NCBI GenBank assembly: GCA_029865125.1
Contig: JAOUHN010000004.1
Span: forward strand, 1 to 41,731
Reading direction: 5' to 3'
From: Candidatus Moraniibacteriota bacterium
Lineage (GTDB): Bacteria; Patescibacteriota; Minisyncoccia; Moranbacterales; UBA9337
DNA: 41,731 bases
The notes beneath the pieces were generated by a model. That model was not told the DNA's origin, ran no database searches, and saw only the letters and a list, made by a program, of their open reading frames with translations. Position 1 is the stretch's first letter. The number at the start of each line of letters is the position of its first letter. The position numbers were made by a program, and so were the translations under genes. Positions 1 to 40,506 of the stretch are shown piece after piece.

Positions 1-1
1 A

Positions 2-1501
2 AAACTTTTGGTGAGTGAGCTTGAAGAAAGAGGAAGAGAGGACTTGGTGGAAAGAATCATTTTCGTCGCCACCCCACAAGCAGGAACCCCAAAGGCCTTG
101 GCAGGACTTTTGCATGGAGACAAGCTTAATATAGCTTCAGGAATAATCCTAGACAAAGACACTGCTCGAGGTTTTGCGGAAAACATGAGTGGAGCGTATA
201 ACCTTCTTCCTTCAAAAAAATATTTTGAAAAAGTGGAAACTCCAGTGATTGAGTTTTCTGATGAAGTGGATGACATTTATGATTTTCAAAAACTATATGG
301 CAAAGACATTGATAGTTTTGATGAAATGAAAAGTTTTCTTTTGGGAGATGATGGACAAAGAAGTGACCCAAGCTTTTCTGACACGGATTCGCCCAATGTT
401 CTTTCAAATAGTTTGTTTTCAAAAGCAACAAACTTGCACAGTGAAATTGATGACTGGGAAGCACCAGAAGGAATGAAAATCATTCAAATTGCTGGATGGG
501 GATTGGACACAATTTCCGGAATCAAATATGACAATTGCGACCTATATTTCTGCAATGGACTTAGTAATTTGGATCGAAAATTAGCTATTGTTCAAGACGG
601 GGATGGCACAGTAGTGACTGCCAGTGCTGTTGTAATGAGTGATGTGGACTATTATGTTGATTTGAAAAAGTATAATCGTCTCGGTGGTTTTCAGGTTAAC
701 AGGGAGCATGCAGATATCCTTGAGATTGACTCACTTCAAGATTTTATTTCAAATCTTATTGAGAATAAGGATGAATTGACTAGTTATATTAAGGATGATA
801 AGCCGGAAGTTAAAAATGAGGATAAAAGATTGCGTCTTAGAATGCATTCTCCAGTGGACGTTCATCTTTTTGACGAGGAAGGGAGCCACACAGGAGTCAC
901 TCAAAACCCAAATCCTGATTCTGATTTGAGGATGTTTGAAGAGGAAATTCCAAATTCGTACTATTGGGAATTCGGAGAAACAAAATATTTGGGGTCTGAT
1001 GGTGATGGTGTGACCAATGTTGATTTGATTGGAACGGGAATGGGAACATTCACATTTGAAATTGATGAGGTTCTGGGAGAAGAAACTGAGAACACAACCG
1101 TTTTTTCTGACATTCCCGTGTTTGAAGGGATGGAGGCGGAGCTTGAAATCAATGAAGGGGAAGTGAGCGCAATGGAAATTGATTTGGAAGGAGATGGAAT
1201 CGTTGATTTTTCATTGAGTCCAGGAGATGATACAATGAATGCGCAAGCTTCACTTCTCATTTTGGAAAAGATTTTGAATGATCTCACTTGTCACAAAAGT
1301 GTGAAACAACCACTTGTCCAAAGAATGATTCAGGTGAAAAGGTTGCTTGAAGATGAAAAAACACAACCTGCAAAAAACATCCTGGAAAGCATGGTCAATC
1401 ATTTGGAAGCTGTGAATAAAAGAAATGACATTGAGAAGCTGGGGATTTCTGAAGAAGAGATTGATGTTTTGATTAATATAATTTCAAAAATAAATAATTA
1501 A
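2..1501 (+). CDS. LCAT/PGAP1-like alpha/beta-hydrolase (putative phospholipase/acyltransferase), 5'-truncated by the window; C-terminal beta-rich region and FIMAH-like helical tail
   Basis: Frame is open from base 2. Motifs ATPQAGTPKA (typical after the nucleophile strand in LCAT-like lipases), GDGTV (catalytic Asp) and REHADIL (catalytic His). The GxSxG elbow would lie just upstream of the window. Confidence 0.75.
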   Translation, partial: KLLVSELEERGREDLVERIIFVATPQAGTPKALAGLLHGDKLNIASGIILDKDTARGFAENMSGAYNLLPSKKYFEKVETPVIEFSDEVDDIYDFQKLYGKDIDSFDEMKSFLLGDDGQRSDPSFSDTDSPNVLSNSLFSKATNLHSEIDDWEAPEGMKIIQIAGWGLDTISGIKYDNCDLYFCNGLSNLDRKLAIVQDGDGTVVTASAVVMSDVDYYVDLKKYNRLGGFQVNREHADILEIDSLQDFISNLIENKDELTSYIKDDKPEVKNEDKRLRLRMHSPVDVHLFDEEGSHTGVTQNPNPDSDLRMFEEEIPNSYYWEFGETKYLGSDGDGVTNVDLIGTGMGTFTFEIDEVLGEETENTTVFSDIPVFEGMEAELEINEGEVSAMEIDLEGDGIVDFSLSPGDDTMNAQASLLILEKILNDLTCHKSVKQPLVQRMIQVKRLLEDEKTQPAKNILESMVNHLEAVNKRNDIEKLGISEEEIDVLINIISKINN

Positions 1502-1511
1502 AAATAAAAAT

Positions 1512-1931
1512 ATGAGTTATAAGAAGAAAATAAGAAATGTGGTGGTTGCATGTTTAATTGCGATTGTTGCTAGCTTGATTTTAGCATTGCCAGAAAATTT
1601 TGGATTGTGCTCCAAGAACGATGACGGATGTATTTATTGGTATATCGATACCTTTGATAATTTAGTGCAGTTTATATTTTATTTTGCACTTGCTATTATT
1701 TTTTCTTTGACTGGAGCATACTTTACAGGAGAGAAAGCTTTTAACGCATGGAAGAAATTTGCAATGATATATTTGTCAATTGCGATTATCCTGGTTTTGA
1801 TTTCACCAACAACTAACATGAACTTTGTTGGTTTTGACAAGGAGCTAACCACAATGTGGCTTGCTGGGATATTTTTTGTGGTGAGTTTGGGGATTATTTT
1901 GGGAAAGAGAGAAAAACAAAGTTCGATTTAA
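1512..1931 (+). CDS. Small 4-TM membrane protein, paralog A1 (putative immunity-like protein)
   Basis: Four hydrophobic segments, Cys pair in the first loop (GLCSKNDDGC), shared C-terminal ELTTMWLAGIFFVVSLGIILGKR; starts 10 bp after the lipase stop. Confidence 0.8.
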   Translation: MSYKKKIRNVVVACLIAIVASLILALPENFGLCSKNDDGCIYWYIDTFDNLVQFIFYFALAIIFSLTGAYFTGEKAFNAWKKFAMIYLSIAIILVLISPTTNMNFVGFDKELTTMWLAGIFFVVSLGIILGKREKQSSI

Positions 1932-1949
1932 AAGGATAAATAAAAAAGT

Positions 1950-2378
1950 ATGAAATCTAAAAAGAAAGAAAGTATTATATTGATGACATCTATTATTCTG
2001 TTCCTTATTGGATATGCGATAGTCTATCCTGAAAACATGGGTATATGTGATAGAAATAATGATGCATGTATTTATAGTATGCCAACTTTTACTATTGGTG
2101 AGCCACTTTTATTTGGGTCAATTTCTTTAGTGGTCGTTTCAATATTTTTATTTTTTACAAATAAAAAATCTTTTGACATTTGGAAGAAATTTTCAATAAT
2201 TTATCTTCCAATTGCAATCATATTGATTTTGATTACCCCAGTTACATCCGGAGGTCTTATAAATATAAACAAAGAACTAACCACAATGTGGCTTGCTGGG
2301 ATATTTTTTGTGGTGAGTTTGGGGATTATTTTCGGAAAAAGAGATCATCACAGCCCGCTTGATTTGGATGAATGCTAG
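1950..2378 (+). CDS. Small 4-TM membrane protein, paralog B
   Basis: Same topology, PENxGxC...C loop, WKKF motif and shared C-terminal block; tail DHHSPLDLDEC. Confidence 0.8.
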   Translation: MKSKKKESIILMTSIILFLIGYAIVYPENMGICDRNNDACIYSMPTFTIGEPLLFGSISLVVVSIFLFFTNKKSFDIWKKFSIIYLPIAIILILITPVTSGGLININKELTTMWLAGIFFVVSLGIIFGKRDHHSPLDLDEC

Positions 2379-2511
2379 AACGAGATTTGAGTCCGTCAGT
2401 TGACGGAGAGATTTGAGATAGAGAAACCAGATTGAGATCATGAAACAGCAATTTAAAAAAAAGAAAAAACATGACACCAGATGACGGCCGTCGGCTCGCG
2501 TCCTGTTTGAA
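2289..2511 (+). repeat. ~220-bp direct repeat, copy 1 (copy 2 at 2911-3133; partial copy at 4523-4612)
   Basis: Near-identical at offset 622. Covers the gene 3' end, the palindrome TCCGTCAGTTGACGGA, GAGATTT-like heptads and the 36-bp palindromic site. Confidence 0.95.
2473..2508. repeat. 36-bp imperfect palindrome, copy 1
   Basis: GACACCAGATGACGGCCGTCGGCTCGCGTCCTGTTT with a central perfect palindrome GACGGCCGTC. Confidence 0.95.
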
Positions 2512-2526
2512 GAAATAATTATTTAA

Positions 2527-2622
2527 GTGAAAAAAAGAAAAGACATTGAGAAACTGGGGATTTCTGAAGAAGAAATTGAGAATCTAATGAAAATTATTAA
2601 CAAAATTAATTTAAATATTTAA
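2527..2622 (+). pseudogene. Orphan fragment homologous to the last ~30 codons of the lipase gene
   Basis: Translates VKKRKDIEKLGISEEEIENLMKIINKINLNI* versus the lipase end VNKRNDIEKLGISEEEIDVLINIISKINN*; directly precedes paralog C. Confidence 0.85.
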
Positions 2623-2628
2623 AAATAT

Positions 2629-3000
2629 ATGAAAAATAAAAAGATTTTATTAAGTGCAGCAATAATTTTGAGTATTATTGCTGGAACGATTTATAAAAAT
2701 AGGTATTTTAATGATCTAGGGACATTTTTATTTTTGTTTTCCTTGGCGTTAATTATAATTTTTATTGTATTATATTTTGTGAAAAATGAAGGGGTATTTA
2801 AGATTTGGAGGAATTTTGCAGGGGTGTATTTATCGATTGCTATTATCTTGGCAGTGATTACTCCTGACACGCCTGGGTTTCTTCGTCCGGATAGTGAAAT
2901 TATATCACTTTGGCTTGCTGGAATATTTTTTGTGGTGAGTTTGGGGATTATTCTTGGAAAGAGAGATCATCACAGCCCGCTTGATTTGGATGAATGCTAG
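2629..3000 (+). CDS. Small 4-TM membrane protein, paralog C
   Basis: Hydrophobic segments, FKIWRNF motif, shared WLAGIFFVVSLGIILGKR block and DHHSPLDLDEC tail. Confidence 0.8.
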   Translation: MKNKKILLSAAIILSIIAGTIYKNRYFNDLGTFLFLFSLALIIIFIVLYFVKNEGVFKIWRNFAGVYLSIAIILAVITPDTPGFLRPDSEIISLWLAGIFFVVSLGIILGKRDHHSPLDLDEC

Positions 3001-3133
3001 AACGAGAATTGAGTCCGTCAGTTGACGGAGAGATTTGAGATAGAGAAACCAGATTGAGATCAGAAAATAGTAATTTAAAAAAAAGAAAAAACATGACACC
3101 AGATGACGGCCGTCGGCTCGTGTCCTGTTTGAA
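2911..3133 (+). repeat. ~220-bp direct repeat, copy 2
   Basis: Matches 2289-2511. Confidence 0.95.
3095..3130. repeat. 36-bp imperfect palindrome, copy 2
   Basis: GACACCAGATGACGGCCGTCGGCTCGTGTCCTGTTT, ending 8 bp before the PaaX-like ATG. Confidence 0.95.
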
Positions 3134-3138
3134 AGGAT

Positions 3139-3702
3139 ATGTATAGAATTGGACCAGTTCAAAAAAAGATCATAGTTACTCTTGTGGGAGGTGTGGTGTT
3201 AGGATCGACTTCATCTCCAAGGCAATATTTCAAGGTATTGCGTGAAATAAAAAGAGAGTGGAAAAACATTAATTCTAGAAGTTTTTCTCGTTCTATGCAA
3301 AGGCTTTCTCGTGAAAAACTAATTGAAAAGAAAATGCTTCCAAATGGAAATTTTAAGCTGGAGTTAACTAAAAAAGGAAAAAATGAAGCAAGAAAGCTGA
3401 GTTTATTGGGGAGTAGTGTTGCGTGCAAGAAGCCAAAAAAGTGGGATGGGAAATGGAGAATTGTTATTTTTGATATTCCTGAAAAAGATCGAATATTCAG
3501 AGGTATTTTGAGAGAACATTTGTATGAATTAAAATTTGCTAAATTGCAACAAAGTGTTTTTGTTTCTCCGCACCCCTTTGAGAGAGCTATTCTTGAATTG
3601 ACGAGGCTATATTCTGCTGAGCGCTATGTGCGAGTAATTACAGCTTTGAAAATTGACAACGAACAAGAAATTAAAAAGAAATTTCAAGGAATAATAAAGT
3701 AG
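3139..3702 (+). CDS. PaaX-like protein (winged HTH plus Cas2-like/ferredoxin-fold domain)
   Basis: wHTH-like RLSREKLIEK...LELTKKG followed by WDGKWRIVIFDIPE and LQQSVFVSP, characteristic of the PaaX central/Cas2-like domain common in CPR. Confidence 0.8.
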   Translation: MYRIGPVQKKIIVTLVGGVVLGSTSSPRQYFKVLREIKREWKNINSRSFSRSMQRLSREKLIEKKMLPNGNFKLELTKKGKNEARKLSLLGSSVACKKPKKWDGKWRIVIFDIPEKDRIFRGILREHLYELKFAKLQQSVFVSPHPFERAILELTRLYSAERYVRVITALKIDNEQEIKKKFQGIIK

Positions 3703-3738
3703 GACACCAGATGACGGCCGTCGGCTCATGTCCTGTTT
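3703..3738. repeat. 36-bp imperfect palindrome, copy 3
   Basis: GACACCAGATGACGGCCGTCGGCTCATGTCCTGTTT, starting immediately after the PaaX-like TAG stop. Confidence 0.95.
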
Positions 3739-3773
3739 TGAGAAGTAATAAAATTTATTAAACAATAAGGAAT

Positions 3774-4160
3774 ATGAATTATAAGAAAAAGATATTAATA
3801 ATGTTGCTAATATCTGTAATTACTGGAATTTTTTCTTTTGGTACCTGTTTATCTTTATCGACAAGACATTATTGCAGTCCAGGTGAATTTGAAGCAATAT
3901 TTAATTTTTTGGCCCTTTTCTCGATCGCTTTTGGCACTATTTCCATAGTATTATTATTTACTAAAGGAGCATTTGATAGTTGGAAGTTATTCGCAATTAT
4001 TTATTTGATTGTGTCCATATTTCTTGTATCTGTAACATCAAACATGGGTGGAATGTTGGGAATTGATAAAGAATTTGTTACAATGTGGCTTGCTGGGATA
4101 TTTTTTGTGGTGAGTTTGGGGATTATTCTGGGAAAGAGAGAAAAACAAAGTTCGCTTTAA
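3774..4160 (+). CDS. Small 4-TM membrane protein, paralog D
   Basis: Cys pair in the loop, AFDSWKLF motif, shared C-terminal block with tail EKQSSL. Confidence 0.8.
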   Translation: MNYKKKILIMLLISVITGIFSFGTCLSLSTRHYCSPGEFEAIFNFLALFSIAFGTISIVLLFTKGAFDSWKLFAIIYLIVSIFLVSVTSNMGGMLGIDKEFVTMWLAGIFFVVSLGIILGKREKQSSL

Positions 4161-4177
4161 AAGGATAAATAAAAAAT

Positions 4178-4612
4178 ATGAGTTATAAGAAGAAAATCAG
4201 AAATATAATAATTGCATGTTTAATTGCGATTGTTGCTAGCTTGGTTTTAGCATTGCCAGAAAATTTTGGATTATGTTCAAAGGGCGATACTGCTTGTGTT
4301 AGGAAATTCATTCACCGTTTTGATAATATAATACAGACAACGTTTTATTTTGCACTTGCTATTATTTTTTCTTTGACTGGAGCATACTTTACAGGAGAGA
4401 AAGCTTTTAACGCATGGAAGAAATTTGCAAGGATATATTTGCCAATTGCGATTGTTCTGGTTTTGATTTCACCAACAACTAACATGAACTTTGTTGGTTT
4501 TGACAAAGAACTAACCACAATGTGGCTTGCTGGGATATTTTTTGTGGTGAGTTTGGGGATTATTTTCGGAAAAAAAGATCATCACAGCCCGCTTGATTTG
4601 GATGAATGCTAG
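4178..4612 (+). CDS. Small 4-TM membrane protein, paralog A2 (near-duplicate of 1512-1931 with a divergent loop)
   Basis: Nearly identical to A1 except the loop segment and the C-terminal tail. Confidence 0.85.
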   Translation: MSYKKKIRNIIIACLIAIVASLVLALPENFGLCSKGDTACVRKFIHRFDNIIQTTFYFALAIIFSLTGAYFTGEKAFNAWKKFARIYLPIAIVLVLISPTTNMNFVGFDKELTTMWLAGIFFVVSLGIIFGKKDHHSPLDLDEC

Positions 4613-4619
4613 GGAGGCT

Positions 4620-4715
4620 AATGAATAATTAAGAATGAATAATTAATAATGAATCAGAAACTCATAAATTCCTAAAATCCTAAATTCCTAAATTCCTAAA
4701 ATCCTAAATTCCTAA
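4620..4715. repeat. Short tandem repeats: AATGAATAATTAA(G/T) x2.5, then TAAA(T/A)TCC x6
   Basis: Read directly; the octamer array spans 4665-4712, just before the M23 start. Confidence 0.9.
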
Positions 4716-4722
4716 CAACAAT

Positions 4723-5244
4723 ATGGCATATCCGCACACACATGAACTGGGGCTTCCTTTGAAAGATTATAGAGTGAATGGTTCTCCGTTTGGAAAAGAC
4801 TGCACCTATGAAGGGGTGAATTGGGGGATTCATCTTGGAGAAGATGTCATCTGTGAAGGTGGAACAAAGATTTTTTCAATTGGAAGAGGAAGGGTCGTGC
4901 ATTGTCAGCTTCACGCAGGAACGAAAGAAAAAGGAAATTGGGGATGGGTTGCAATCATTGCGCACAAGAATCCAAAAACAAAAAAAGTTTTCTTCTCGAT
5001 CTGTGGTCACATGGGACGAGTTTTTGTTTCAAAAGGGGACACGGTTGAATTGGGTCAAAAAATTGGAACCATCGGCGCCTCAAACACCCCAGAAAACGGT
5101 TTCTGGGAAACACCCCATCTTCACTTCGCAATTTTCACCGGACCCTGGCAAAGAAAAATCCTCCCCGGATATTTCAAACCAGAACACAAAAGAACCAAGC
5201 TGGAATGGTGGGTGAGTCCGAAGGAGTTTATTGAGAGATATTAA
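4723..5244 (+). CDS. M23 (LytM-like) metallopeptidase, stand-alone catalytic domain
   Basis: HxxxD (HLGED), VSKGDTVELGQKIG and HxH (PHLHF) motifs; no obvious signal peptide. Confidence 0.9.
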   Translation: MAYPHTHELGLPLKDYRVNGSPFGKDCTYEGVNWGIHLGEDVICEGGTKIFSIGRGRVVHCQLHAGTKEKGNWGWVAIIAHKNPKTKKVFFSICGHMGRVFVSKGDTVELGQKIGTIGASNTPENGFWETPHLHFAIFTGPWQRKILPGYFKPEHKRTKLEWWVSPKEFIERY

Positions 5245-5256
5245 TTTTCAAACTGA

Positions 5257-6618
5257 ATGGAGAATCAGGTATATAAAAAATTAAAAGAGAGCATTTCTGA
5301 TATAAGAAGAGATGAGCTTCCGAAAATGGTAGATCAGCTAATTCGCTTAGGCGCTTTTGAGGTGACTTTTCCAGTTTTTAAAAAAGGCTTGATTTTAAAA
5401 AATCCTGGTTTTAATACTAAAAAAGGTTGCTCTATAAAGTCGGGTTGTCATGGTGATTCTGAAACAAAAGATGGGAAGATAAGAATTGAGTATAGCGTTC
5501 AAGAAGACTGGAGAGGAAAAGTTAAAGCAGAGATAAAAAGATTTAATGAATCAAATGAAAAGGATAAGGTTGAAACTTTTGTATTTGCCACAAATCAATA
5601 CTTGGACAATAAGGAGATTGAGTATCAAGAGAATGGAAAAAAAATAAAAAAAAGTATTGAAGAATATATTAAAGATAAAACAGGGGTTGGTAATGTTATT
5701 GTTTTAGGATTGGATGATTTACTTTCACCGCTAAGTGATCCAGAATTCTCTGGTGTGAGAAGGGATTTTTTAAAAATCGAAAATGAATTTTTTATAAATA
5801 GTCAACAATATTTAGATGGACTTGAAAAGTATAGGCGATATAGAATAAGTGATGGTGAAAAAAAGTCTGTCAGCGGTGCAAGTAAATTATTGCAGCAAGT
5901 AAGTAGTTTATCATGGAAAATTAAAAATGCAGAATGTAAGATAATTTTTATTAATGGTACAAGCGAGAATTTTAAAGAATTGTTGCGCTTAGTGGGCAAT
6001 GCTGCCAATGTCATTAAGTGTGAAGATGATCAAGAGATGGTTTTTATAAGATATCCTAGAAAAGATTTCACTATAAGGCAAGAGCACATTGATGAGATTA
6101 CGGGGAATGGTATTAAATATATTACAATATGGGATCCTGAGAAAATTAATAATCTAAATGATTATTCTCAGTTTGAGCAAGGGCAAAATAAAATGGTTTT
6201 TGTTTGTGCAAACAATAAGGAGTCTAGCAAAATTATTAATGAAATGAATTTAGAAGAGGGTGAATATGAAATTATAGAAGCTTTTATGGGTGATACCGAA
6301 AGCACCTTTGATATTGATAATTATGAAAAGGGATTAGATATAAAAAAGGATTATTCAGGAAATGCTGTAAAATATCAAGCGATGACTTATTTGTATGGGC
6401 CAATCAATATTAATGATAGTGAGATAAGAGTTAAAATTCGTAAATTAGTGGGGATAAATAAAAAAGAGGAGGAATTTATATTAAAAAACCTAATACAAAA
6501 AGATGCTTTGAATAGAGTTGGAAACTTGGTTAGTGTTAGCGATTTTAAACTGGGTAAGAATATTCTAGAAAAATTAGTGAGTAGTGGTGAAATAGATATA
6601 AATAATTTAATGGTTTAA
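5257..6618 (+). CDS. Putative restriction-endonuclease-like N-terminal domain plus degenerate P-loop NTPase-like region and C-terminal wHTH-like region
   Basis: GDSETKDGKIRIEYSVQEDWRGKV...FVFATNQ resembles Mrr-like REase domains fused to STAND NTPases. IIFINGTSENFKELL and YITIWD sit where Walker A and B would be, but there is no GKT. Confidence 0.5.
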   Translation: MENQVYKKLKESISDIRRDELPKMVDQLIRLGAFEVTFPVFKKGLILKNPGFNTKKGCSIKSGCHGDSETKDGKIRIEYSVQEDWRGKVKAEIKRFNESNEKDKVETFVFATNQYLDNKEIEYQENGKKIKKSIEEYIKDKTGVGNVIVLGLDDLLSPLSDPEFSGVRRDFLKIENEFFINSQQYLDGLEKYRRYRISDGEKKSVSGASKLLQQVSSLSWKIKNAECKIIFINGTSENFKELLRLVGNAANVIKCEDDQEMVFIRYPRKDFTIRQEHIDEITGNGIKYITIWDPEKINNLNDYSQFEQGQNKMVFVCANNKESSKIINEMNLEEGEYEIIEAFMGDTESTFDIDNYEKGLDIKKDYSGNAVKYQAMTYLYGPININDSEIRVKIRKLVGINKKEEEFILKNLIQKDALNRVGNLVSVSDFKLGKNILEKLVSSGEIDINNLMV

Positions 6619-6622
6619 CCAT

Positions 6623-9025
6623 ATGAGAGATAATTACAATAAAAAGTTTTTGAGTAAATTGGCTGCACTAAATAATGAAGTTGCAAATAAGCAATTAGTC
6701 GTTGTTGCGGTTGAATTTAGGAAAATTGTTTCGAAGCTTAGAGATAATGATAAAATTTATGACACCCTGGATTTATTAGAGGAATTTGTACATAGGGCAA
6801 CGAAGCAAGCTTTTGAAATAATTGATTTGGTTATGGAAAATAAATATCCTACTAAGAAATATAAGTCTAAATTTGGGGAATATTCAGGGAAGAGTTATGA
6901 GGATTTAGTCTTGAAATGTGTGGGAATATTGGAAATAATTCGATATTATGATAAGGATATTTTTATGAAGCTGATTGATATTCAAGAAAGAGTTAAAAAA
7001 TATGAATCTGTTCAGAAGAAAATCAAGGAAGTTTTGGAGAAGTATTCTAAATATAACTACCATGCGATTAGCAATCCAAAAATAGGATATGGAGTGCAAA
7101 GGAAAATTCTTGATGAAATTTTGAAATGGACTCCTCAGCAAAAAAAGAAAATATTTGATTTGATTGAAATTGTAACTCGTGAGTTTTTGAAGAGTTCTTT
7201 TGAGGGAACTTCAATGAAGGATTATAATACCATGGTTTTTCAGAGAGGGTCTCTTGGCGTGAATAAGTTTTTGAAAAATATTCGAAGAGAAACGATTGAT
7301 ATGCTTGTGGAGATGTTTGAAGGTACTAGAAGTGAAAATGTAAAATTGAGAATATTGAATATTTTGAATGAGGCGACAAGAAAGCCTATGGAGGGATATG
7401 ATGACAAAATGGTTGAAATGGTTGAAGGTGATGTTGAATATCTTGTGAAAATTTATGATCAATTTGCGTTTGGAAAAAATGGTAAGATTTCAAGTTTTCC
7501 GATTGTTAAGGAGATAGAAGATAAGCTATATTTTTTGAAAAAGGCTTATGGAGAAAATATTCCCGAGATTGAATTACTGAAAAAAAGAATTAATGAAAGT
7601 GAAGAATATCAATTTTTGAAATTACTTGTTAAGGATCATAATGATTTGGCCATTAGTGAAAAAGACTTAAATGATGAGATAAAAGAGTTGGTTAATTCTA
7701 TTGATGAGGATGATTTGGGTAGATATTGTGATGCACTGGAGAAGTTATCCAGTTATGTCAAAAGGAGATTGATTGATGAATGGGAATTAAGTCATGCAAG
7801 GAAATTTTGTTTTGAATTAGCAAAGAATAAACCAGATTTAGCAGGTAAGATTTTGTCTGAAATTATTTTTAATGGAAAGGAATTGAATCATTTTGTGTCA
7901 CAGTTTTTGTGTGGTTTTCGTGCTGAAAATCATACAAGAGAATGGGATAAATTCATTGGGCCAATTGTTGATAAAAAAAACATTGAGATGCTAAAAGTTA
8001 TTCCTTGGTCAGTTTCTTGTATCGTGGAACATGTTGATAGGTATGTAAGAGAGAATGATATAAGGCTGTTGAATGATATCGTGAAGGGGAATAATAAATT
8101 TTCTTTCTTGAGGGATGTTAAGAATGATGTGAGTAAGACAAATTTCCATGTAATCTTAATTGAAGCGTTGGCTGTTATTTGGAAGAAGGATAAGAAGAGA
8201 ATTGAGAAAATAATTATTGAAGAATTGAAGCAGAATAGTGAGGATCAAGGTTGTATTTCTGCATTATTGAATAATTTGGATTTTTCTTCTTATAGGAAAG
8301 TTCTTGATCTTTTAGAATTTAGTGATGGAAATATAAAGTTTATTATTGGTTTATTGGTTGAAATAGATAAGTTGGATCATCGAATGCAGGAGTTGATGGT
8401 TATTCTTAGTGAAAAATATTATGAGAATGTCATGAATGTTTTCATGAAACGGATTAATAATCGACAAAATATGAAAGAAAAGGGCAATTATGAAGCAGTT
8501 CCATATCATTTCAATCAAGAGCTGAAAGAGGCTATTGTGAATGGAGAAGAATATGAAAAGTTTATGTTGGAGTGGATTGAGTTGGCAAAGAAAGGAAGTT
8601 ATATTTTTTGCATGGATACTGGAAGACTTTTGAGAAGAGTTGATGGAGTGAAAAAGGAATATATTTTGAAAGTTTTGGATAAGAATAGCACAGAAAAGGA
8701 AATTGAAAATATTTTGAAAATGTTTACTTTTGATGTTCCTGATTATGAAATTTTGATTGGGATTATAAAGATGACTGACAAGAAGGAGATCTGGGGAAAC
8801 ATTGAAGGTGTGTTGGCTCAAACAGGGGTTGTGTCTGGTGAGCATGGAATTTCAGATAGCTATAAGCGGAAGGTAAAAGATTTTGAGAAATATAAAAAGG
8901 ATAAGGATGAGAATGTCAAAAAGTTTGCTGAAGGATTTGTTGATAATATGAATCAAAGAGCTAAGGAGGAAAGAAAAAGAGAGGATGAAGAAATTGCGCT
9001 TCGAAAAATTGAATTTGAAGGGTGA
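6623..9025 (+). CDS. Large alpha-helical repeat protein, likely partner of the upstream ORF
   Basis: 800 aa, all-helical amphipathic pattern, 4-bp gap to the upstream gene. C-terminal GVVSGEHG...DENVKKFA...RAKEERKRE resembles tails of large REase-NTPase-helical proteins. Confidence 0.55.
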   Translation: MRDNYNKKFLSKLAALNNEVANKQLVVVAVEFRKIVSKLRDNDKIYDTLDLLEEFVHRATKQAFEIIDLVMENKYPTKKYKSKFGEYSGKSYEDLVLKCVGILEIIRYYDKDIFMKLIDIQERVKKYESVQKKIKEVLEKYSKYNYHAISNPKIGYGVQRKILDEILKWTPQQKKKIFDLIEIVTREFLKSSFEGTSMKDYNTMVFQRGSLGVNKFLKNIRRETIDMLVEMFEGTRSENVKLRILNILNEATRKPMEGYDDKMVEMVEGDVEYLVKIYDQFAFGKNGKISSFPIVKEIEDKLYFLKKAYGENIPEIELLKKRINESEEYQFLKLLVKDHNDLAISEKDLNDEIKELVNSIDEDDLGRYCDALEKLSSYVKRRLIDEWELSHARKFCFELAKNKPDLAGKILSEIIFNGKELNHFVSQFLCGFRAENHTREWDKFIGPIVDKKNIEMLKVIPWSVSCIVEHVDRYVRENDIRLLNDIVKGNNKFSFLRDVKNDVSKTNFHVILIEALAVIWKKDKKRIEKIIIEELKQNSEDQGCISALLNNLDFSSYRKVLDLLEFSDGNIKFIIGLLVEIDKLDHRMQELMVILSEKYYENVMNVFMKRINNRQNMKEKGNYEAVPYHFNQELKEAIVNGEEYEKFMLEWIELAKKGSYIFCMDTGRLLRRVDGVKKEYILKVLDKNSTEKEIENILKMFTFDVPDYEILIGIIKMTDKKEIWGNIEGVLAQTGVVSGEHGISDSYKRKVKDFEKYKKDKDENVKKFAEGFVDNMNQRAKEERKREDEEIALRKIEFEG

Positions 9026-9040
9026 TTTCAAGTAGTGCAG

Positions 9041-9108
9041 TGGTGGCAAAATCAAATCAAAAAAGTTCTCATTCCCAGGTTTTGGGTGGGGACTTTTTGT
9101 TTTTTGTG
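9041..9108. repeat. Intergenic repeat Y, copy 1 (hairpin, terminator-like)
   Basis: AAATCAAAAAAGTTCTCATTCCCAGGTTTTGGGTGGGGACTTTTTGTTT; other copies at 10511, 11498 and 12409. Confidence 0.9.
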
Positions 9109-9123
9109 GGGGGGGTGCAGTGC

Positions 9124-9201
9124 AAACCCTTCTTTAATTCCTCCCCTTGACCCGTCTTCATTGAGTGTTTCGCCGAGGCAAGATGGAAAGAGGAGGAGAT
9201 A
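9124..9201. repeat. REP-like repeat Z, copy 1
   Basis: Shares TCCTCCCCTTGACCCGTCT (19 bp identical), CGCCGAGG and a GGAAAG..GAGGAG..ATAC end with 35996-36076. Confidence 0.8.
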
Positions 9202-9252
9202 CACGAGTTTCAACGGCTCATACGAAAGTGGAGCGTTGTTTTGGCTTGAATC

Positions 9253-9281
9253 TTGACTTTTTTGTGGTTTTTAGATACTAT
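9253..9281 (+). promoter_or_regulatory. Sigma70-like promoter
   Basis: TTGACT-17 bp-TACTAT upstream of ORF 9341. Confidence 0.65.
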
Positions 9282-9340
9282 TATGAGTCCTGAAGAAGAG
9301 GTGGAATTTAACAAAAATTTGTTTCCAAGGAGAGATCGAA

Positions 9341-9679
9341 ATGGCTCAAGACAGTGATAACGCAATGTACCGAATGATCATTGACTACATCAATGGAATT
9401 CGCATGGTGCAAGATGAGCAACTCAACTCTTTCATTGAGGTGTTTGACAAGAGTGTTAATTGGTCAACAGAAGATGCTATTGTTGGCTCGGAGGGAGTGA
9501 AAGCAGCTCTTTCGCGTCCCATGACATTGAAAGAAATTGAAGAATTTTTTCGGAAGCAGACTAGTGCCGTGTGTGCCATCGTTGATCCGGAATTTGCCGG
9601 CACCAAAAATCAGTGCCTTGGAATTTTTATCAGGGCTCTAAATAAAGAGGATTTATTTTCTGAGCCAGTGCTGTTCTAG
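9341..9679 (+). CDS. Hypothetical protein
   Basis: Has its own promoter, an AAGGAG SD and a downstream hairpin; no recognisable motif. Confidence 0.7.
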   Translation: MAQDSDNAMYRMIIDYINGIRMVQDEQLNSFIEVFDKSVNWSTEDAIVGSEGVKAALSRPMTLKEIEEFFRKQTSAVCAIVDPEFAGTKNQCLGIFIRALNKEDLFSEPVLF

Positions 9680-9696
9680 GATATTTTCAGGATTAG

Positions 9697-9737
9697 GAGA
9701 CCTTTTGTAGCCCGAGTGTTGCAATGGGTCCCTTTTT
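9697..9737 (+). terminator. Putative intrinsic terminator
   Basis: GGAGACC...GGTCCC stem followed by a T-run. Confidence 0.5.
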
Positions 9738-9764
9738 ATTTCTAGCTTCGAATGGTTTTGAGTG

Positions 9765-9796
9765 AAATAAAAAGGATTAGGTATCTTTTTGATTTT
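9765..9796. repeat. Intergenic motif X, copy 1
   Basis: AAATAAAAAGGATTAGGTATCTTTTTGAT; related copies at 10478, 11411 and 12378. Confidence 0.7.
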
Positions 9797-9943
9797 TGCG
9801 ACATAATCTCTCATACATAGAATTATGATGCAAATCGTTCGTGATTCCTTGACAGTCTATTTGAAAAATGAGAGCATTTAGGAAGAACTTTTTGAATTTA
9901 ATTTTGCAGATTACTGATCATAAAACATAAGGGGAGGTAGTTT

Positions 9944-10396
9944 ATGTCCAATGCGGATTGCTTGGGAGGCATGTGTCGGCATTATGAAGGAATAGGATGT
10001 GCGATAATCAATCCAACTAAGGGCTTTCAGCTCTCCTTGAAAGAAGGAAAGGTTTTCGAGTATTGCTCTGGGAGAGATTCTTGTGGAAGATCTTTGGATT
10101 TCGGGACTGGCCGCACTTATTTGGTAGACAAATATAGTGGGAGATTACACAACTCCAGTGATTGGGATTCTGGTTGGATTGATTTCCTTGAAGAATCAAC
10201 CGGAAAAAATCTTTCGGAAACTGACAGGGGGTTTATTGATGCTCTCAGAAAGGAGTATGCAACGCCCGGAACTGAAATGCCAAGGTTTATGGTGATTGTA
10301 GAGAAATTTTCAAAAGAGCTGAAAGAATCCTCTTTTTCTGGCATTGAAGAAGTGCTCAAATGGGCAGGTCTTCCAGGTGTGTCTGGTGGCGGTTGA
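9944..10396 (+). CDS. Hypothetical protein with a Cys-rich N-terminus
   Basis: Strong SD (GGGGAGGT), TTGACA at 9849 and a downstream terminator. Confidence 0.7.
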   Translation: MSNADCLGGMCRHYEGIGCAIINPTKGFQLSLKEGKVFEYCSGRDSCGRSLDFGTGRTYLVDKYSGRLHNSSDWDSGWIDFLEESTGKNLSETDRGFIDALRKEYATPGTEMPRFMVIVEKFSKELKESSFSGIEEVLKWAGLPGVSGGG

Positions 10397-18999: not shown

Positions 19000-20502
19000 A
19001 TGTCTAAAACTTTAGTCTTTTTTATTGCATTTGCACTGGTTTCATTTGTTGTGATGATCTCGTTATCTTTTTTCTATGTGAGCTCTACGGAAGAGAGCGT
19101 TTTGAAGGAGAATCAATTTAAATATTTAAAAGGCGTCGTGGATTCAAAATCAAATCGAATAGACGCCTTTTTGAATACTCAAATTGCAGATGCTCTTTTC
19201 TTAGCTGACTCTTACGAGATACAGGATTCTTTTGATTCCGAGTTGATTTCTGACACAGCTCAGGTTACTGAAATGGTAAAAAAAGTTGCCAAAGAAACTT
19301 CTAAAGAGGTCGAAAAGTATATGAAAGAAAATCCATCTGCAACAGTTCAAGATATGGTAAATAATCCAGAGTTTCGAAAAATTGCCACTAGAAGAGTTGG
19401 AGAAACAGGGTATACCGTTTTTCATGGACCTGATACCATCATAAACTATCTTCACTGGGATCCAGAAGAGCAAGGAGATGATCATAGTGATGTTTTTGAA
19501 AGAGATCCAAAAGGACAACAAGCGCAACTTCTTTTAGCTGCTAAGAATAACACGGAAGATGTGTCCGGATTCTATACAAAAAAGCAATCTGACGGGACGC
19601 TGAAAGAGAAGTTTATGTATATGTCAATGTTGCCGCAAAGATCAGCAGATGGAATAAGATTGGCTGTGCAAGCCACTGTATATCTAGATGATTTTGGAAA
19701 AACATTGAAAATTGCGAAGGATCTAGATGAAGAGTTTCGTAATTTCAAAAATTCAAAAGAATATAGTGATATGTTCTTGATTAATGCAGACGGAGATATT
19801 GTGTGGACAGCTGAAAAAAGAAATGACCTTGGAAGTAATTTGAATAGAGGAGTATATAAAAATACGCAACTCGCAAAAGCCTATCTTGAAGTGAAAGATA
19901 ATCTAGTTACAACAATATCTGATCCGGGATATTATGAAGCATCCAATGAAATATCCATTTTTGTGGCCACTCCTGTTTTTGAAAATAAAGATTCTCAAAA
20001 TCCAGAATTCAAAGGAGTTGTTGCTCTTCAAATTAGTAATGAAAAAATGAATAATATTGTAACAGATGTTATTGGAAGTAATGGAACAGGAGAGGTGTAT
20101 GCGGTTAACAAAGGAGGAATTCATATAACCTCAGTAAAGAGTGATATAGCAAAACATTCTGCAGATGAATTGGGTCATGTTGTTAAATCTAGTCAAATTG
20201 ACAAATGTTTTGAAGGCTTGAGATATGGTGAGAAAAACGCGGTTTTGAGCTTGAGTGACTTTAAAAAATATGATAACTATGCGGGAAATCCGGTTTATGG
20301 AGTATATCAATATGTTGTTAATCCAGGATGGTGTGTGCTTGCAGAAGTGAATGCTGCTGATGTGGAAAATGGAGACTTGTTTGCTTTGAGTAAAAAAATG
20401 ATAATAAATATTTTTCTGACAGTTTTAGTTATTAGTATTTCTTTAGGTTTAATTATTGACAAATTTTTCTTAAAGAAAAAGATTGAGGAGAAAACAATAT
20501 GA
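19000..20502 (+). CDS. Two-TM protein with a large extracytoplasmic Cache-type sensor region and no cytoplasmic output domain
   Basis: TM, then YSDMFLINADGDIVWT..NDLGSNL, IFVATPV, TGEVYAVN and WCVLAEV (dCache-like), then a TM and a short basic tail. Confidence 0.75.
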   Translation: MSKTLVFFIAFALVSFVVMISLSFFYVSSTEESVLKENQFKYLKGVVDSKSNRIDAFLNTQIADALFLADSYEIQDSFDSELISDTAQVTEMVKKVAKETSKEVEKYMKENPSATVQDMVNNPEFRKIATRRVGETGYTVFHGPDTIINYLHWDPEEQGDDHSDVFERDPKGQQAQLLLAAKNNTEDVSGFYTKKQSDGTLKEKFMYMSMLPQRSADGIRLAVQATVYLDDFGKTLKIAKDLDEEFRNFKNSKEYSDMFLINADGDIVWTAEKRNDLGSNLNRGVYKNTQLAKAYLEVKDNLVTTISDPGYYEASNEISIFVATPVFENKDSQNPEFKGVVALQISNEKMNNIVTDVIGSNGTGEVYAVNKGGIHITSVKSDIAKHSADELGHVVKSSQIDKCFEGLRYGEKNAVLSLSDFKKYDNYAGNPVYGVYQYVVNPGWCVLAEVNAADVENGDLFALSKKMIINIFLTVLVISISLGLIIDKFFLKKKIEEKTI

Positions 20503-21977
20503 AAAAAAATACAGCCTTTCTTATAGCTTATGTTACCCCAATTATTGTAATCGGAGCTTTGTTGACATTTGGCAATTTGTTTTTGACAGAAAAAACGTTT
20601 GAAAATCAAATCAAAGATCAACTACGCAATGCTTCCAAATCAAGAGCGGCAAGTGTGACGGATTTTTTAGATGAAAAAGAACGAAGCATTGAATCTTTGT
20701 TGAATTTTGATGAGATAAAAGAATTATCCAGTAGCAATATTAGCTGGAATCAAGAAATAGCGAAGAACGACATTAAAAATAACGTTAACATTGCCATTAA
20801 AGAGGTTGAAAAATATGCACTTTTAAAGGGCGAGTTAACATTCAGAGATTTTCTTGATTCAGATGCATTCAAAGAAATTGCCATGAGAAGATTTTCAAAT
20901 AATGGTGGTATGTTTGTTTTCAGAGCCAATGATTTTGATGGAGAGTTGCATGAAGATAAACATAGAATACGCATCAGTGAAGAGGATCGGTTACTTGTCA
21001 ATAATGTGATTACTGAGATTAATTCGGAATATCAGGATGGTGAAATTAATTTTGGTGAATTTATAGATGAAAAAAAAGAAATCAATAGAAATTATGGTTA
21101 TTTCAAGGCAACTTCAGTGAAAACTTCTGATGGCGTGGTTTTGGGTATTGGAGCGATTGGGGACATCAGTGACTACGGTGTTTTAGGCGAAATCCCTGAA
21201 GATTTGATGCGTAAAATAGATGATTTTTCAGACGGTTTTGATTATGAGAATGTTCTTATAATTTCTTCTGATAGGAAGATTGTTTTTGCAAAAAATAAGA
21301 TAGACGATTTGGGAAAAGGCATTGATTGGGTCGAAAGAGTAGACATAAAAAATGCGTATATAAGAGCCATTCAGAATAATAAATTTGCAATTGGAGACCC
21401 ATATTTTGGAAGAACAAAAGAATCATTTGAAATTTCCATGGCTGCGCCGATTATTGATGAAGGTGAGATTAAGGGTGCCATTGTTTTGATTGATGATTTT
21501 GACAAGTTGTCTAGCGTTGTTTCAGATATAGTGGGATTGGGAATTAAAGGTGAAAATTACTTGGTCAATTCAGAGGGGCTTCTCATGACTCCATTGAGAT
21601 TTAGACATGTGAATTTATTGATTCAGAAGATGGAGAATGAAGTTACTAGAGAATGTATTAGAAGATTGGATTTAAATGCGCAAGCAGGTATTTCAAACGG
21701 ATCAGTGAGTCAAACCGATGTATATGATATTAAAAATTATCTCGGAACAGGATCACTAACAATAGGTGTTCCAATAAATAGAACCGGATGGTGTCAAATA
21801 ACAGAATTCGACAAGCAAGAATATTTTGACGCATTAAGAAAAGAACGAATAGTGAATCAGATTTCAATTCTCATATTTTCAGTCACAAGTATTTTGATAT
21901 ATTTTTTAATAAGAAGAATATTGTTAAAAAAAGAAAAAGCAGAATCAGTGACAGCGATTAGAGAGGATAAAAAATAA
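20499..21977 (+). CDS. Second two-TM Cache-type sensor protein, paralog of the upstream gene
   Basis: ATGA overlap; DDLGKG, ISMAAPI, GENYLVN and GWCQITE; short C-terminal tail. Confidence 0.75.
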   Translation: MKKNTAFLIAYVTPIIVIGALLTFGNLFLTEKTFENQIKDQLRNASKSRAASVTDFLDEKERSIESLLNFDEIKELSSSNISWNQEIAKNDIKNNVNIAIKEVEKYALLKGELTFRDFLDSDAFKEIAMRRFSNNGGMFVFRANDFDGELHEDKHRIRISEEDRLLVNNVITEINSEYQDGEINFGEFIDEKKEINRNYGYFKATSVKTSDGVVLGIGAIGDISDYGVLGEIPEDLMRKIDDFSDGFDYENVLIISSDRKIVFAKNKIDDLGKGIDWVERVDIKNAYIRAIQNNKFAIGDPYFGRTKESFEISMAAPIIDEGEIKGAIVLIDDFDKLSSVVSDIVGLGIKGENYLVNSEGLLMTPLRFRHVNLLIQKMENEVTRECIRRLDLNAQAGISNGSVSQTDVYDIKNYLGTGSLTIGVPINRTGWCQITEFDKQEYFDALRKERIVNQISILIFSVTSILIYFLIRRILLKKEKAESVTAIREDKK

Positions 21978-28730: not shown

Positions 28731-29354
28731 ATGGATGACAAGAAGGTTTTGCTAAATGAAAAAGAATATCAAGGTGTTGGTGGTTTCTTGGTGGAGATCA
28801 TCAAGGTTTTTGCATTGGCTTTGATTATCATTATTCCTATTAGAGTATTTCTATTCCAACCTTTTTTTGTTCAAGGTGCCAGTATGGAGCCAAATTTCAA
28901 TGATGGAGAATATCTAATTGTGAATGAATTGGGATATAAGAAAACCAAAATTTCTTTTGGAAATCTAAATATTTTCACAATGAAAAATTTTCGTGATTTG
29001 AAAAGAGGTGATGTGATTGTTTTTCGTTATCCAAAAAGTCCGAGTCATTTTTTCATCAAAAGAGTGATTGCCGTTGCTGGAGAGAGAGTAGAGATTATGG
29101 ATGGAGAAGTAATTGTGTATAACGAAGAAAATCCGAAAGGAATTATTTTGGATGAAGAAAAATATTTGCCAAAAAAAATCAAAACGGAAGGAAACACCAG
29201 TTTTAATGTTGAAGAAGGTGAAATATTTGTTCTGGGAGACAACAGAGGTGCCAGCTCTGATTCAAGAGTGTGGGGCCTTGTCGGAGAAGATGATGTCATT
29301 GGAAAAGTGGCGTTGAGAGCATGGCCGATTAATAAGTTTAGTTTGTCATTTTAG
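28731..29354 (+). CDS. lepB: Signal peptidase I
   Basis: GASMEP (Ser), FIKRVI (Lys) and GDNR..SSDSR motifs. Confidence 0.97.
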   Translation: MDDKKVLLNEKEYQGVGGFLVEIIKVFALALIIIIPIRVFLFQPFFVQGASMEPNFNDGEYLIVNELGYKKTKISFGNLNIFTMKNFRDLKRGDVIVFRYPKSPSHFFIKRVIAVAGERVEIMDGEVIVYNEENPKGIILDEEKYLPKKIKTEGNTSFNVEEGEIFVLGDNRGASSDSRVWGLVGEDDVIGKVALRAWPINKFSLSF

Positions 29355-29387
29355 TGATTTTGATTATAAATTTAAAGAATAATACAT

Positions 29388-30767
29388 ATGCCTAGAAAAA
29401 ATGTGAAGGTTGAGGCAAGTCAAAAATCAGCTTCAAAAGAGGCTTTACCAAAAAAGAAGTTAAAAAATCCTATTGTACTTCAAAATCCAAGAGGAATGAA
29501 GGATATTCTTCCTGGTGACCAAGGATATTGGACTCAAGTTAGAAGAGTTTTGGAAAGTTCTTATCAAAAATATGGATTTCAAAGGATTGATATCCCAGTT
29601 TTGGAGTACGCAAACCTATTTTCCAGATCTATTGGTGAGGATACTGATATTATGGATAAAGAAGTGTATTCTTTCAAAACTAAGGGTGGTGACGAAGTGG
29701 CTCTTAGGCCGGAATTTACTGCAGGAATTGCAAGATCATACATTCAACATGGAATGAATGTTCTTCCAAAGCCAGTAAAGCTTTTTTCAATAGGGCAAGC
29801 ATATCGATATGATCGTCCTCAAGAAGGGCGTTATAGAGAGTTTTGGCAAGCAAATTTTGATATCTTTGGAGAAGAGGATTCAATTCTTGATGCAGAAGTA
29901 ATGCAGTTGGCGTATCGTGTTTTGGGAAATTTGAAGTTGAAGGACATTCAATTTCAAGTGAATAGTATTGGATGTACGGATTGTCGAAAATCATATTTGA
30001 GTTTATTGGTAAGCTATTTTAAATCAAAAAACAAAAAACTTTGTAAGGATTGCAAAAGAAGACTCGGAACAAATCCATTGAGAATCTTAGACTGCAAGGA
30101 GGATAAATGCATCCAGGTTTCTTCAGGAGCACCTCAAACAGTGGATCACTTGTGCGAAGATTGTCATGAACACTTTAAGAGCTTGTTGGAATATTTGGAT
30201 GAATTGGAAATTCCATATTCAATCAATCCTAGCTTAGTTAGAGGTTTGGATTATTATTCTAGAACTGTTTTTGAAATCTGGTCTCTTGCAGAAGGAAAGA
30301 GATTGTCTTTGGGAGGAGGAGGAAGATATGATAAACTCATTGAAAATCTTGGAGGAGAACCAACTCCGTCAATTGGATTCGGGTTGGGATTGGATAGGAT
30401 TGTGATGGAAATGAAAAGAACAAATGCAAAACAGTATGAAGCTCCGAAACCTAGAATATTTTTGGCACAATTGGGAAAACTAGCCAAGAGAAAAAGTTTG
30501 AAGCTGTTTGCTGATTTAGAAAAAAATGGAATTCTGGTGGCTGAAAGTTTTGGAAGAGGAGGATTGAAATCACAGCTAAGAACAGCAAACAAGTTGGGAG
30601 TGGACATCACTCTTATTGTTGGACAAAAAGAGGCTCTAGATGAAACTGTTATTGTCAAGAACATGGTGAGTGGAACACAGGAAACAGTTGCGAAAGAAAA
30701 ACTCTTGCCTTTGATAAAAAAGATTATGAAAAGTAAATTAGTAGTTTTGAAGTATAATAATAAATAA
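29388..30767 (+). CDS. hisS: Histidyl-tRNA synthetase
   Basis: LRPEFTA, YRYDRPQEGRYREF, LVRGLDYY and GGGRYD motifs. Confidence 0.98.
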   Translation: MPRKNVKVEASQKSASKEALPKKKLKNPIVLQNPRGMKDILPGDQGYWTQVRRVLESSYQKYGFQRIDIPVLEYANLFSRSIGEDTDIMDKEVYSFKTKGGDEVALRPEFTAGIARSYIQHGMNVLPKPVKLFSIGQAYRYDRPQEGRYREFWQANFDIFGEEDSILDAEVMQLAYRVLGNLKLKDIQFQVNSIGCTDCRKSYLSLLVSYFKSKNKKLCKDCKRRLGTNPLRILDCKEDKCIQVSSGAPQTVDHLCEDCHEHFKSLLEYLDELEIPYSINPSLVRGLDYYSRTVFEIWSLAEGKRLSLGGGGRYDKLIENLGGEPTPSIGFGLGLDRIVMEMKRTNAKQYEAPKPRIFLAQLGKLAKRKSLKLFADLEKNGILVAESFGRGGLKSQLRTANKLGVDITLIVGQKEALDETVIVKNMVSGTQETVAKEKLLPLIKKIMKSKLVVLKYNNK

Positions 30768-38997: not shown

Positions 38998-39051
38998 CAA
39001 ACAATTGCTCGAATGAGCGTTGAATATATAAAAAATAAAATAACAAAAAAT

Positions 39052-40468: not shown

Positions 40469-40506
40469 CTTAAGTATTTTTGCTGTTTTGTATTAAAGAT
40501 GTTTTT

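Follow-up and report, generated by a model that had tools for sequence, protein, structure and literature searches.

An exported LCAT-type lipase and its adjoining four-helix membrane proteins: a conserved gene module, with a candidate self-protection role, in Parcubacteria-type candidate-phylum bacteria

Introduction

In the available text of PMC10730906, TslA of Staphylococcus aureus is described as a phospholipase A that is secreted by the type VII secretion system (T7SS) and encoded with tandem immunity genes for DUF576 lipoproteins, including TilA. If self-protection is the right reading, TslA–TilA is the nearest demonstrated analog of the locus treated here, which occupies positions 2–4612 of contig JAOUHN010000004.1 from a Candidatus Moraniibacteriota bacterium and consists of the 3′ part of a lipase gene followed by five genes for paralogous four-helix membrane proteins (A1–A5). 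The whole contig of 41,731 nt was analyzed (the window; C47 among the contigs of this genome). As far as the same source goes, the two systems have in common a lipase acting at the outer face of a single-membrane bacterium, an adjoining gene family of variable copy number and sequence, and the presence of several lipase loci in one genome. They differ in that TilA is a soluble lipoprotein, whereas the window's partner is a polytopic four-helix membrane protein of no common sequence family, and in that TslA travels through the T7SS with helical partner proteins, whereas the window lipase has a plain signal peptide. Immunity has been demonstrated for TilA, whereas for the window partner we infer it.

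Two further kinds of system offer a comparison. Tle4, a type VI secretion system (T6SS) lipase effector encoded with its partner Tli4 (4r1d), is likewise an α/β-hydrolase lipase with a GxSxG-type serine and an adjacent partner gene, and the likeness extends to a weak fold match (E = 2.7e-6) and to sub-threshold PGAP1-like Pfam matches on the window lipase; however, the template modeling score (TM-score) is 0.36, the window has no T6SS context, and its partner is another kind of protein. Polymorphic toxin loci of the contact-dependent inhibition (CDI) and Rhs types share with the window old variable cassettes flanked by conserved, recombining sequence, and remnants of the 3′ end of the upstream gene ahead of extra downstream genes. 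In the window, however, the remnant is a conserved helical tail instead of a toxin tip, and what varies in the enzyme is an internal region, the cap, with about 600 nt of conserved sequence between it and the partner gene.

The enzyme itself belongs with the LCAT/LPLA2 family (PF02450; 4x92, 6mvd), with which it shares an α/β-hydrolase fold with a cap and a Ser-Asp-His triad. Enzymes of the LCAT family act both as phospholipases and as acyltransferases. The window protein departs from these relatives in being bacterial, about 970 aa long, and fused to a signal peptide, a NosD-type β-helix, a β-sandwich and a helical tail.

The lipase and membrane genes form a conserved, operon-like module in Parcubacteria-type candidate-phylum bacteria, and it is close to certain that they work together. 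As for what the membrane proteins do, protection of the producer against its own lipase is the best supported reading and is put forward tentatively.

Linkage of the Lipase and Membrane Genes

Two sets of genomes were searched: the window's genome with 60 relatives (61 genomes; the order sample), and 400 genomes drawn evenly from the phylum (the phylum sample). In the order sample, the membrane family was found in 18 of 61 genomes and the lipase in 21, and all 18 family genomes hold the lipase. Outside the window's genome, 34 family matches fell into 24 contig-level clusters, and for 21 of these the same contig carries a lipase match upstream, in the same orientation. A seemingly isolated cluster (G057:C7) follows a 988-aa protein with an LCAT match (E = 5.6e-16), so that 22 of the 24 clusters adjoin an LCAT-type lipase, and the remaining two are at contig ends; the association with lipase genes that a preliminary description of this DNA had suspected is thus borne out across genomes. 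Among lipase genomes without a family match, the lipase of G027 is cut by the contig end, G022 has three family genes at the start of another contig under a wider profile, and G048 has a membrane open reading frame (ORF) of 130 aa with a Cys pair, without a profile score, 4 nt downstream of its lipase.

In the phylum sample, the five genomes with strong family matches are exactly the five with a lipase match at E < 1e-50, and both genomes that are new relative to the order sample hold adjacent lipase–membrane pairs. Five further weak, partial family matches (E = 4e-5 to 8e-4), all in lipase-less genomes, were not accepted as family members; four lie inside ORFs of 371–389 aa and one in an ORF of 166 aa.

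Within the module, the distance from the lipase stop to the first membrane gene ranges from −20 to 99 nt (median 10; n = 16 loci). Loci carry one to five membrane copies, some of them broken, with internal stops in G057:C6:115180 and G001:C25:5502. The linkage extends across genera and into two further families of the class. No description of the module was found in the literature on lipases, LCAT or immunity in Parcubacteria and Patescibacteria, supplementary files being outside the scope of that search.

More distant LCAT-type homologs occur in 15 genomes of the phylum sample, and seven of these loci were inspected. In five (L033, L036, L037, L038 and L039), small three-helix membrane ORFs lie directly upstream of the lipase gene, including a tandem run of five such genes in one genome (L039, G416:C1, 214–1765). 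One locus has three small membrane ORFs downstream of the lipase, and in one (L034) no such small ORF was found beside it. The three-helix proteins have no detectable relation to the four-helix family (hhalign probability 10.6%). All three distant lipases that were scanned were confirmed as LCAT by Pfam. The L039 lipase is split into ORFs of 290 and 607 aa.

Organization of the Locus

The window is a complete contig of a 1.03-Mb genome in 72 contigs, which is 92% complete; three sequencing runs, of sediment DNA, are on record for the source sample. The lipase locus comprises the following features, all on the plus strand.

2..1501 (+): lipase 3′ part, 499 codons, an open frame without a start; Pfam LCAT, 32.5 bits
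1512..1931 (+): membrane paralog A1, 139 aa, four transmembrane segments (TM), tail KREKQSSI; start 10 nt after the lipase stop
1950..2378 (+): membrane paralog A2, 142 aa, four TM, tail DHHSPLDLDEC; from ORF and paralog comparison
2440..2519 (+): hairpin repeat copy 1, 80 nt, locus-specific; from repeat search
2458..2628, approximately (+): degenerate remnant of the lipase 3′ end ahead of A3, with in-frame stops
2629..3000 (+): membrane paralog A3, 123 aa, four TM, tail DHHSPLDLDEC; short loop 1 without the Cys pair
3062..3141 (+): hairpin repeat copy 2; from repeat search
3139..3702 (+): PaaX_M/Cas2-like protein, 187 aa; PaaX_M, 78 bits (cut-off 24)
3670..3749 (+): hairpin repeat copy 3; from repeat search
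3774..4160 (+): membrane paralog A4, 128 aa, four TM, tail KREKQSSL; from ORF and paralog comparison
4178..4612 (+): membrane paralog A5, 144 aa, four TM, tail DHHSPLDLDEC; body 81% identical to A1

The ORFs, the LCAT match and the four hydrophobic segments in each paralog agree with the preliminary description of an LCAT-like hydrolase followed by five paralogs of 123–144 aa with four TM each. The five paralogs do not, however, form an uninterrupted array, as both the PaaX_M/Cas2-like gene and the lipase remnant lie inside it. The remnant, a decayed copy of the last 50–60 lipase codons, matches the lipase over 2458–2610 (E = 5e-6) with one TGA and one TAA, and is also seen as a repeat pair (1412–1513 and 2527–2628, 77% identity); it marks a duplicated cassette of lipase tail plus membrane gene. 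Lipase-tail remnants ahead of extra membrane genes were also found in G016 and G018.

The 80-nt repeat has a terminator-like layout, a G+C-rich hairpin followed by a T-run, and its four copies in the genome, three in the window and one on contig C23, are confined to the two lipase loci described below. It folds no better than shuffled sequence (z from 0 to −1.5), and an Rfam scan of window positions 1–9500 gave no match.

The protein encoded at 3139–3702 combines a winged helix with the PaaX middle (Cas2-like) domain (PF20803). It is not a full-length PaaX equivalog (TIGR02277, 34 bits against a cut-off of 264.55; 187 aa against a model of 279 positions). A PaaX_M gene stands beside the module in four other loci (L042, L046, L050 and L053), and the gene is likely the module's regulator.

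The Lipase

The window opens inside the lipase gene. Its first 127 nt are identical to the last 127 nt of contig C45, which carries the 5′ part of the gene (29200–30732), and also to the first 127 nt of contig C23. From the C45 part come a Sec-type signal peptide, repeats that match NosD/Beta_helix (E = 2.4e-25 and 1.4e-20) and the first hydrolase half; this half bears the motif ISHSNGG, in which H-S-N-G-G holds the serine. The signal peptide and serine motif for which the preliminary description proposed to look upstream are both present. Pfam LCAT matches both parts above its cut-off of 21 bits (32.5 bits, E = 7e-8, for the window part; 34.7 bits for the C45 part). The catalytic Asp (QDGDGTVV) and His (REHADILE) are in the window part, which completes the hydrolase core, cap included, and continues into a β-sandwich and a C-terminal helical bundle. 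Overall, the gene product of about 970 aa runs from the signal peptide through a β-helix of polysaccharide-binding type and an α/β hydrolase of LCAT/LPLA2 fold to the β-sandwich and helical tail. The H-S-x-G-G elbow, the Asp and the His are invariant in 78 aligned homologs, and two cap Cys residues are nearly so.

Because the gene is split over two contigs, the fold was tested on a full-length natural homolog, P0195 (968 aa, 67% identical to the window part). Its model (predicted local distance difference test, pLDDT, 91.5) comprises a signal peptide, a β-helix (residues 30–310), the hydrolase with its cap (325–720), a β-sandwich (740–872) and a four-helix tail (877–967). With Foldseek, the hydrolase matched LPLA2 (4x92; E = 6e-11, TM-score 0.69) and LCAT (6mvd; E = 4e-8) and, more weakly, Tle4 (the values given above), and the β-helix matched phage tailspikes and alginate epimerases. 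A sequence search with a full-length ortholog against solved structures gave no match. The window lipase is accordingly predicted to be an exported LCAT/LPLA2-type hydrolase with an intact Ser-Asp-His triad.

The lipase family comprised 630 proteins at E ≤ 1e-20 among 7,995 candidates scored, from Parcubacteria-type bacteria, with source names such as "cell surface protein," "alpha/beta hydrolase" and "beta-helix repeat protein." The N- and C-terminal domains vary between genera, so that only the catalytic core and the β-sandwich are constant partners of the membrane family.

The genome appears to hold two full-length lipase genes. Contig C23 continues from the shared 127 nt into a second lipase 3′ half (77% protein identity), after which come two further membrane paralogs and a further remnant of a lipase tail. 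At the other end, the last 125 nt of contig C17 match C45:29100–29224 exactly, with no similarity farther upstream. There are thus two entries (C45 and C17) and two exits (C47 and C23) around an exact repeat of 1.63 kb, which covers about 100 nt of leader and the first 511 or so lipase codons, as expected from two full-length genes in one genome. In G016 (C5 and C7) and G018 (C29 and C81), the contigs of paired lipase loci break off at one and the same lipase codon, which suggests that identical 5′ halves are common between paired loci. The 6000–10000 part of C23 (L002) has a G+C content of 42–45%, against about 35% elsewhere, and its ORFs give weak, sub-threshold MMPL and LolA-like Pfam matches; this half may be foreign DNA or a binning problem.

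The Four-Helix Membrane Family

Paralogs A2–A5 are 45–81% identical to A1, and the run WLAGIFFVVSLGII is invariant in all five. An AlphaFold model of A5 (4178–4609), built on an alignment of 82 sequences, has four helices with a mean pLDDT of 90.9. With a threshold of E ≤ 0.001, a profile of the five paralogs matched 773 representative clusters, of which 197 reach E ≤ 1e-10; among the best 150 matches listed, nearly all proteins have 85–166 aa and one has 209 aa. A word-indexed search gave 28 protein matches, none with a Pfam domain, and the three of these with a source name are each a "hypothetical protein" of Patescibacteria or Parcubacteria.

Conservation was assessed on 144 representatives. 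The Cys pair of outer loop 1 is present in 87% and 85% of them, respectively, and a D-x-E motif in outer loop 2 in about 80%. The W-x-K-F turn at the inner end of helix 3 has Trp in 99% and Phe in 97%, helix 3 has a Pro in the family consensus, and the F…S…I pattern of helix 4 has Ser in 97%.

No Pfam model or name exists for the family, and the fold searches gave no informative match. Scans of the paralogs with Pfam and NCBIfam returned sub-threshold matches only; an assignment to the phage holins was rejected, Phage_holin_Dp1 (PF16938) having matched one of the five paralogs only, at 18.8 bits against a cut-off of 25. The membrane model had no Foldseek match in the PDB at E ≤ 0.001 and no ESM Atlas match with a score ≥0.9, and its best VIA-align match (Z = 9.1) was a designed nanocage, a match generic for helical bundles. 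The first set of patterns used to search the genome contigs for the family gave no match. The available text of PMC12419801 contained no passage linking the Lipocone superfamily to the membrane family, VanZ-type homology lying outside this comparison.

Recombination in Both Genes

The near-identical 3′ ends of the paralogs, already remarked on in the preliminary description, contain a 42-nt string with five occurrences in the window (four exact and one with a single mismatch) and none in 100 shuffles. The view of the array as recombining is upheld by homogenization of the 3′ end at synonymous sites and by mosaic synonymous divergence (dS). Among the seven paralogs of the genome, identical residues are encoded by the same codon in 82–100% of cases in TM4, against 31–62% elsewhere (a range that leaves out the closely related A1, A5 and B1 copies). 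Two types of C-terminal tail are distributed independently of the gene bodies, and the tails of A2, A3 and A5 are identical at every nucleotide; A5 is thus a recombinant, because its body resembles that of A1 (81% protein identity) and its tail is of the other type. Between A1 and A5, the loop-1 segment has a dS of 1.57, against 0.08–0.13 in the flanks. The variation is wider than the extracytoplasmic loops to which it had at first been ascribed: loop 1 does vary, but so does the whole 5′ half (TM1, loop 1 and TM2).

The same pattern is found beyond the window. Among 26 family members from 11 genomes, median TM4 identity is 78% within genomes (40 pairs) and 26% between them (285 pairs), against 29% and 22%, respectively, for the 5′ part. 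N-terminal types recur across genera, such as M-x-Y-K-K-K-I-Y-W … P-E-I-F-G-L-C and K-K-T-Y-W-W. Homogenized TM4 and tail sequences together with mosaic 5′ parts indicate that gene conversion keeps the 3′ ends alike while old 5′ cassettes are shuffled.

The lipase is mosaic as well. The two copies are identical over the first 127 nt (dS 0), 60–85% identical at the nucleotide level from about 127 to 900, which includes the cap (dS 1.09), and 91–98% identical from 900 to 1500 (dS 0.19 in this 3′ part). The lipase cap and the TM1–loop 1–TM2 part of the membrane gene are old allelic cassettes, shuffled between 3′ ends that are homogenized within the genome. Homogenized flanks around old cassettes in both genes are the signature of an interface of recognition or conflict.

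Role of the Membrane Partner

Self-protection (immunity) against the lipase encoded alongside would work as follows. The enzyme would be a phospholipase A or acyltransferase that is exported and directed by its β-helix to the envelope of another cell, to breach it, to harvest lipids, or both. The membrane proteins would reside in the producer's own membrane, where their outer loops would block or hold docked lipase, and extra copies would cover the genome's second lipase allele and those of kin. A blocker at this interface would spare the producer's single membrane and leave the enzyme free elsewhere, which favors self-protection. Co-folding, run without controls, of a lipase core (G057 ortholog, residues 560–1213) and the membrane partner encoded with it gave a score of 0.00 and a mark of 0.32, a result that bears on binding in neither direction.

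A different role for the partner, as a docking or working subunit, is a strong competitor, though the less likely of the two. The four-helix protein would anchor, orient or activate the lipase on the cell's own surface for contact with host membranes, and the pair would be a device for acquiring lipids instead of a toxin–immunity pair. Several observations weigh against self-protection, and most of them bear on this choice. Orphan immunity genes are common in true toxin–immunity systems; in the order sample, however, 40 genomes lack the lipase and the membrane family was found in none of them, and co-occurrence is strict in both directions, with no family member outside a lipase genome. The near-invariant residues of the family, some of them on the cytoplasmic side, exceed the needs of a pure binder. 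Domain scans of the lipase returned only the signal peptide, NosD/Beta_helix and LCAT, with no T6SS or T7SS trafficking domain (the genome's secretion-system genes were not searched), and export is therefore by a plain signal peptide. The absence of lone membrane genes and the conserved motifs fit an obligatory working partner equally well, and these two points, together with the conserved spacer between the two variable regions and the lack of an interbacterial secretion signal, suit a partner in docking or lipid handling at least as well as they suit immunity. Self-protection is also weakened by the crude dN/dS values of the variable segments (0.22 and 0.26), which give no signal of positive selection, by the roughly 600 nt of conserved, recombining lipase 3′ sequence between the variable regions, which tends to uncouple cognate pairs, and by a promoter and terminator scan that stayed at chance level.

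Docking would further suit the tight spacing of the two genes, a lipase that is left without a membrane anchor of its own once the signal peptide is cleaved, and a bacterium in need of lipids. Candidate-phylum bacteria are mostly unable to make their own fatty acids. In this genome (92% complete), a FabF-type synthase and DegV were not found and one PlsC-type acyltransferase is present; the lack of a detected FabF-type synthase makes lipid scavenging a real need. The available text of PMC8080830 puts forward secreted phospholipases as a source of lipids for candidate-phylum bacteria.

Four observations nevertheless tell against docking and favor self-protection. First, an anchor needs one copy, whereas the module has arrays of two to five diverged, partly broken copies, and such variation in number and decay of copies would be expected of immunity genes. 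Second, the module is accessory in the order (18 of 61 genomes), being absent from about two thirds of related genomes with similar lipid needs. Third, lipases of different genera have different C-terminal domains but the same membrane family beside them, which leaves the catalytic core and the β-sandwich as the only lipase parts constant over the range of the family. Fourth, unrelated small membrane genes hold the same place beside distant lipases.

A composite of these ideas is quite unlikely as a whole. The pair would be a lipid-capture machine, in which a transacylase strips acyl chains from host phospholipids, the four-helix protein is a docking and acceptor-presenting subunit, and the PaaX-like protein is an acyl-CoA-sensing regulator. 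The D-x-E motif and the membrane Ser of the four-helix protein would serve docking and acceptor presentation in the cell's own membrane, and shuffling of the cap and loop cassettes would fit the pair to different host envelopes; both details share the low likelihood of the composite.

Handling of the reaction products is unlikelier still. The membrane proteins would take up or flip the released fatty acids or lysolipids, or present an acceptor lipid for transacylation, for which the acyltransferase activity known in the LCAT family (here by fold match), the conserved membrane-embedded Ser and interfacial D-x-E, and the failure to detect fatty-acid synthesis may be adduced. However, a four-helix bundle of 130 aa resembled no known transporter or flippase in the fold searches, and a variable 5′ half with variation in copy number is unexpected of a transporter.

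It is very improbable that the membrane genes are unrelated neighbors, that is, holin-like, phage- or pilin-derived genes duplicating beside the lipase: the M23 peptidase gene 3′ of the array and the weak Pfam matches (the holin match given above and TrbC at 13.5 bits) point that way, but no such match reaches its curated cut-off, no phage genes lie around, the window being core chromosome, and the linkage counts across genera and in two further families disfavor it. An assembly or strain artefact, with the array and the forked lipase arising from collapsed strain variants in a metagenome bin, is hardly credible, since the window's being a whole contig that starts inside a gene, the forking of C45 to C47 and C23 by 127-nt overlaps and the higher G+C content (42–45%) of the distal half of C23 are outweighed by the two upstream (C45, C17) and two downstream contigs, as for a two-copy repeat, by the five paralogs on one contiguous contig, and by the recurrence of arrays and paired lipase loci in other genomes, some of them in few contigs.

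Neighboring Genes and Other Features of the Genome

Outside the lipase locus, the window consists of ordinary core chromosome, with the dcw genes, ftsA/ftsZ, nrdD and hisS. Directly 3′ of the array lies an M23 peptidase gene (4723–5244, +; Pfam, 54.2 bits), whose product has an N-terminus without an obvious signal peptide. It is followed by two ORFs of 453 and 800 aa (5257–6618 and 6623–9025, +) in the window's stretch of lowest G+C content (29–32%). Neither has a trusted match (Pfam gave one sub-threshold match to the first, 17.3 bits against a cut-off of 23.5, and NCBIfam none), and PADLOC gave no match on the genes just downstream of the array. This stretch may be an island of unassigned function beside the lipase locus.

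Farther along, two adjoining paralogous ORFs of about 500 aa (19000–20502 and 20499–21977, +) give sub-threshold dCache_1 matches (42.7 and 39.1 bits, cut-off 45). Two ORFs (36892–38997 and 39013–39354, +) encode the anaerobic ribonucleotide reductase, the last 50 or so positions of the NRDD model falling in the second, separate ORF of 113 aa. A defense-type AAA ATPase resembling OLD, AriA and GajA (40480–41730, +; PADLOC AriA, E = 7.4e-24; Pfam AAA_15) runs off the contig end. Elsewhere in the genome, a tandem repeat of period 7 is common to the starts of contigs C1 and C21 and to an internal site of C3 (about 48645–48710).

Implications

For the question of how candidate-phylum bacteria attack or tap other cells, the module provides a concrete, testable gene pair: an exported phospholipase/acyltransferase of human type with a cell-surface-binding domain, and a partner family comprising no fewer than 773 representative clusters. 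Should the partner serve immunity, it would represent a new, membrane-embedded way to neutralize an interfacial lipase; should it be a subunit for docking or acceptor presentation, the pair would bear directly on lipid scavenging. The lipid-capture machine, if true, would be the first defined route by which candidate-phylum bacteria without fatty-acid synthesis build their membranes from host lipids.

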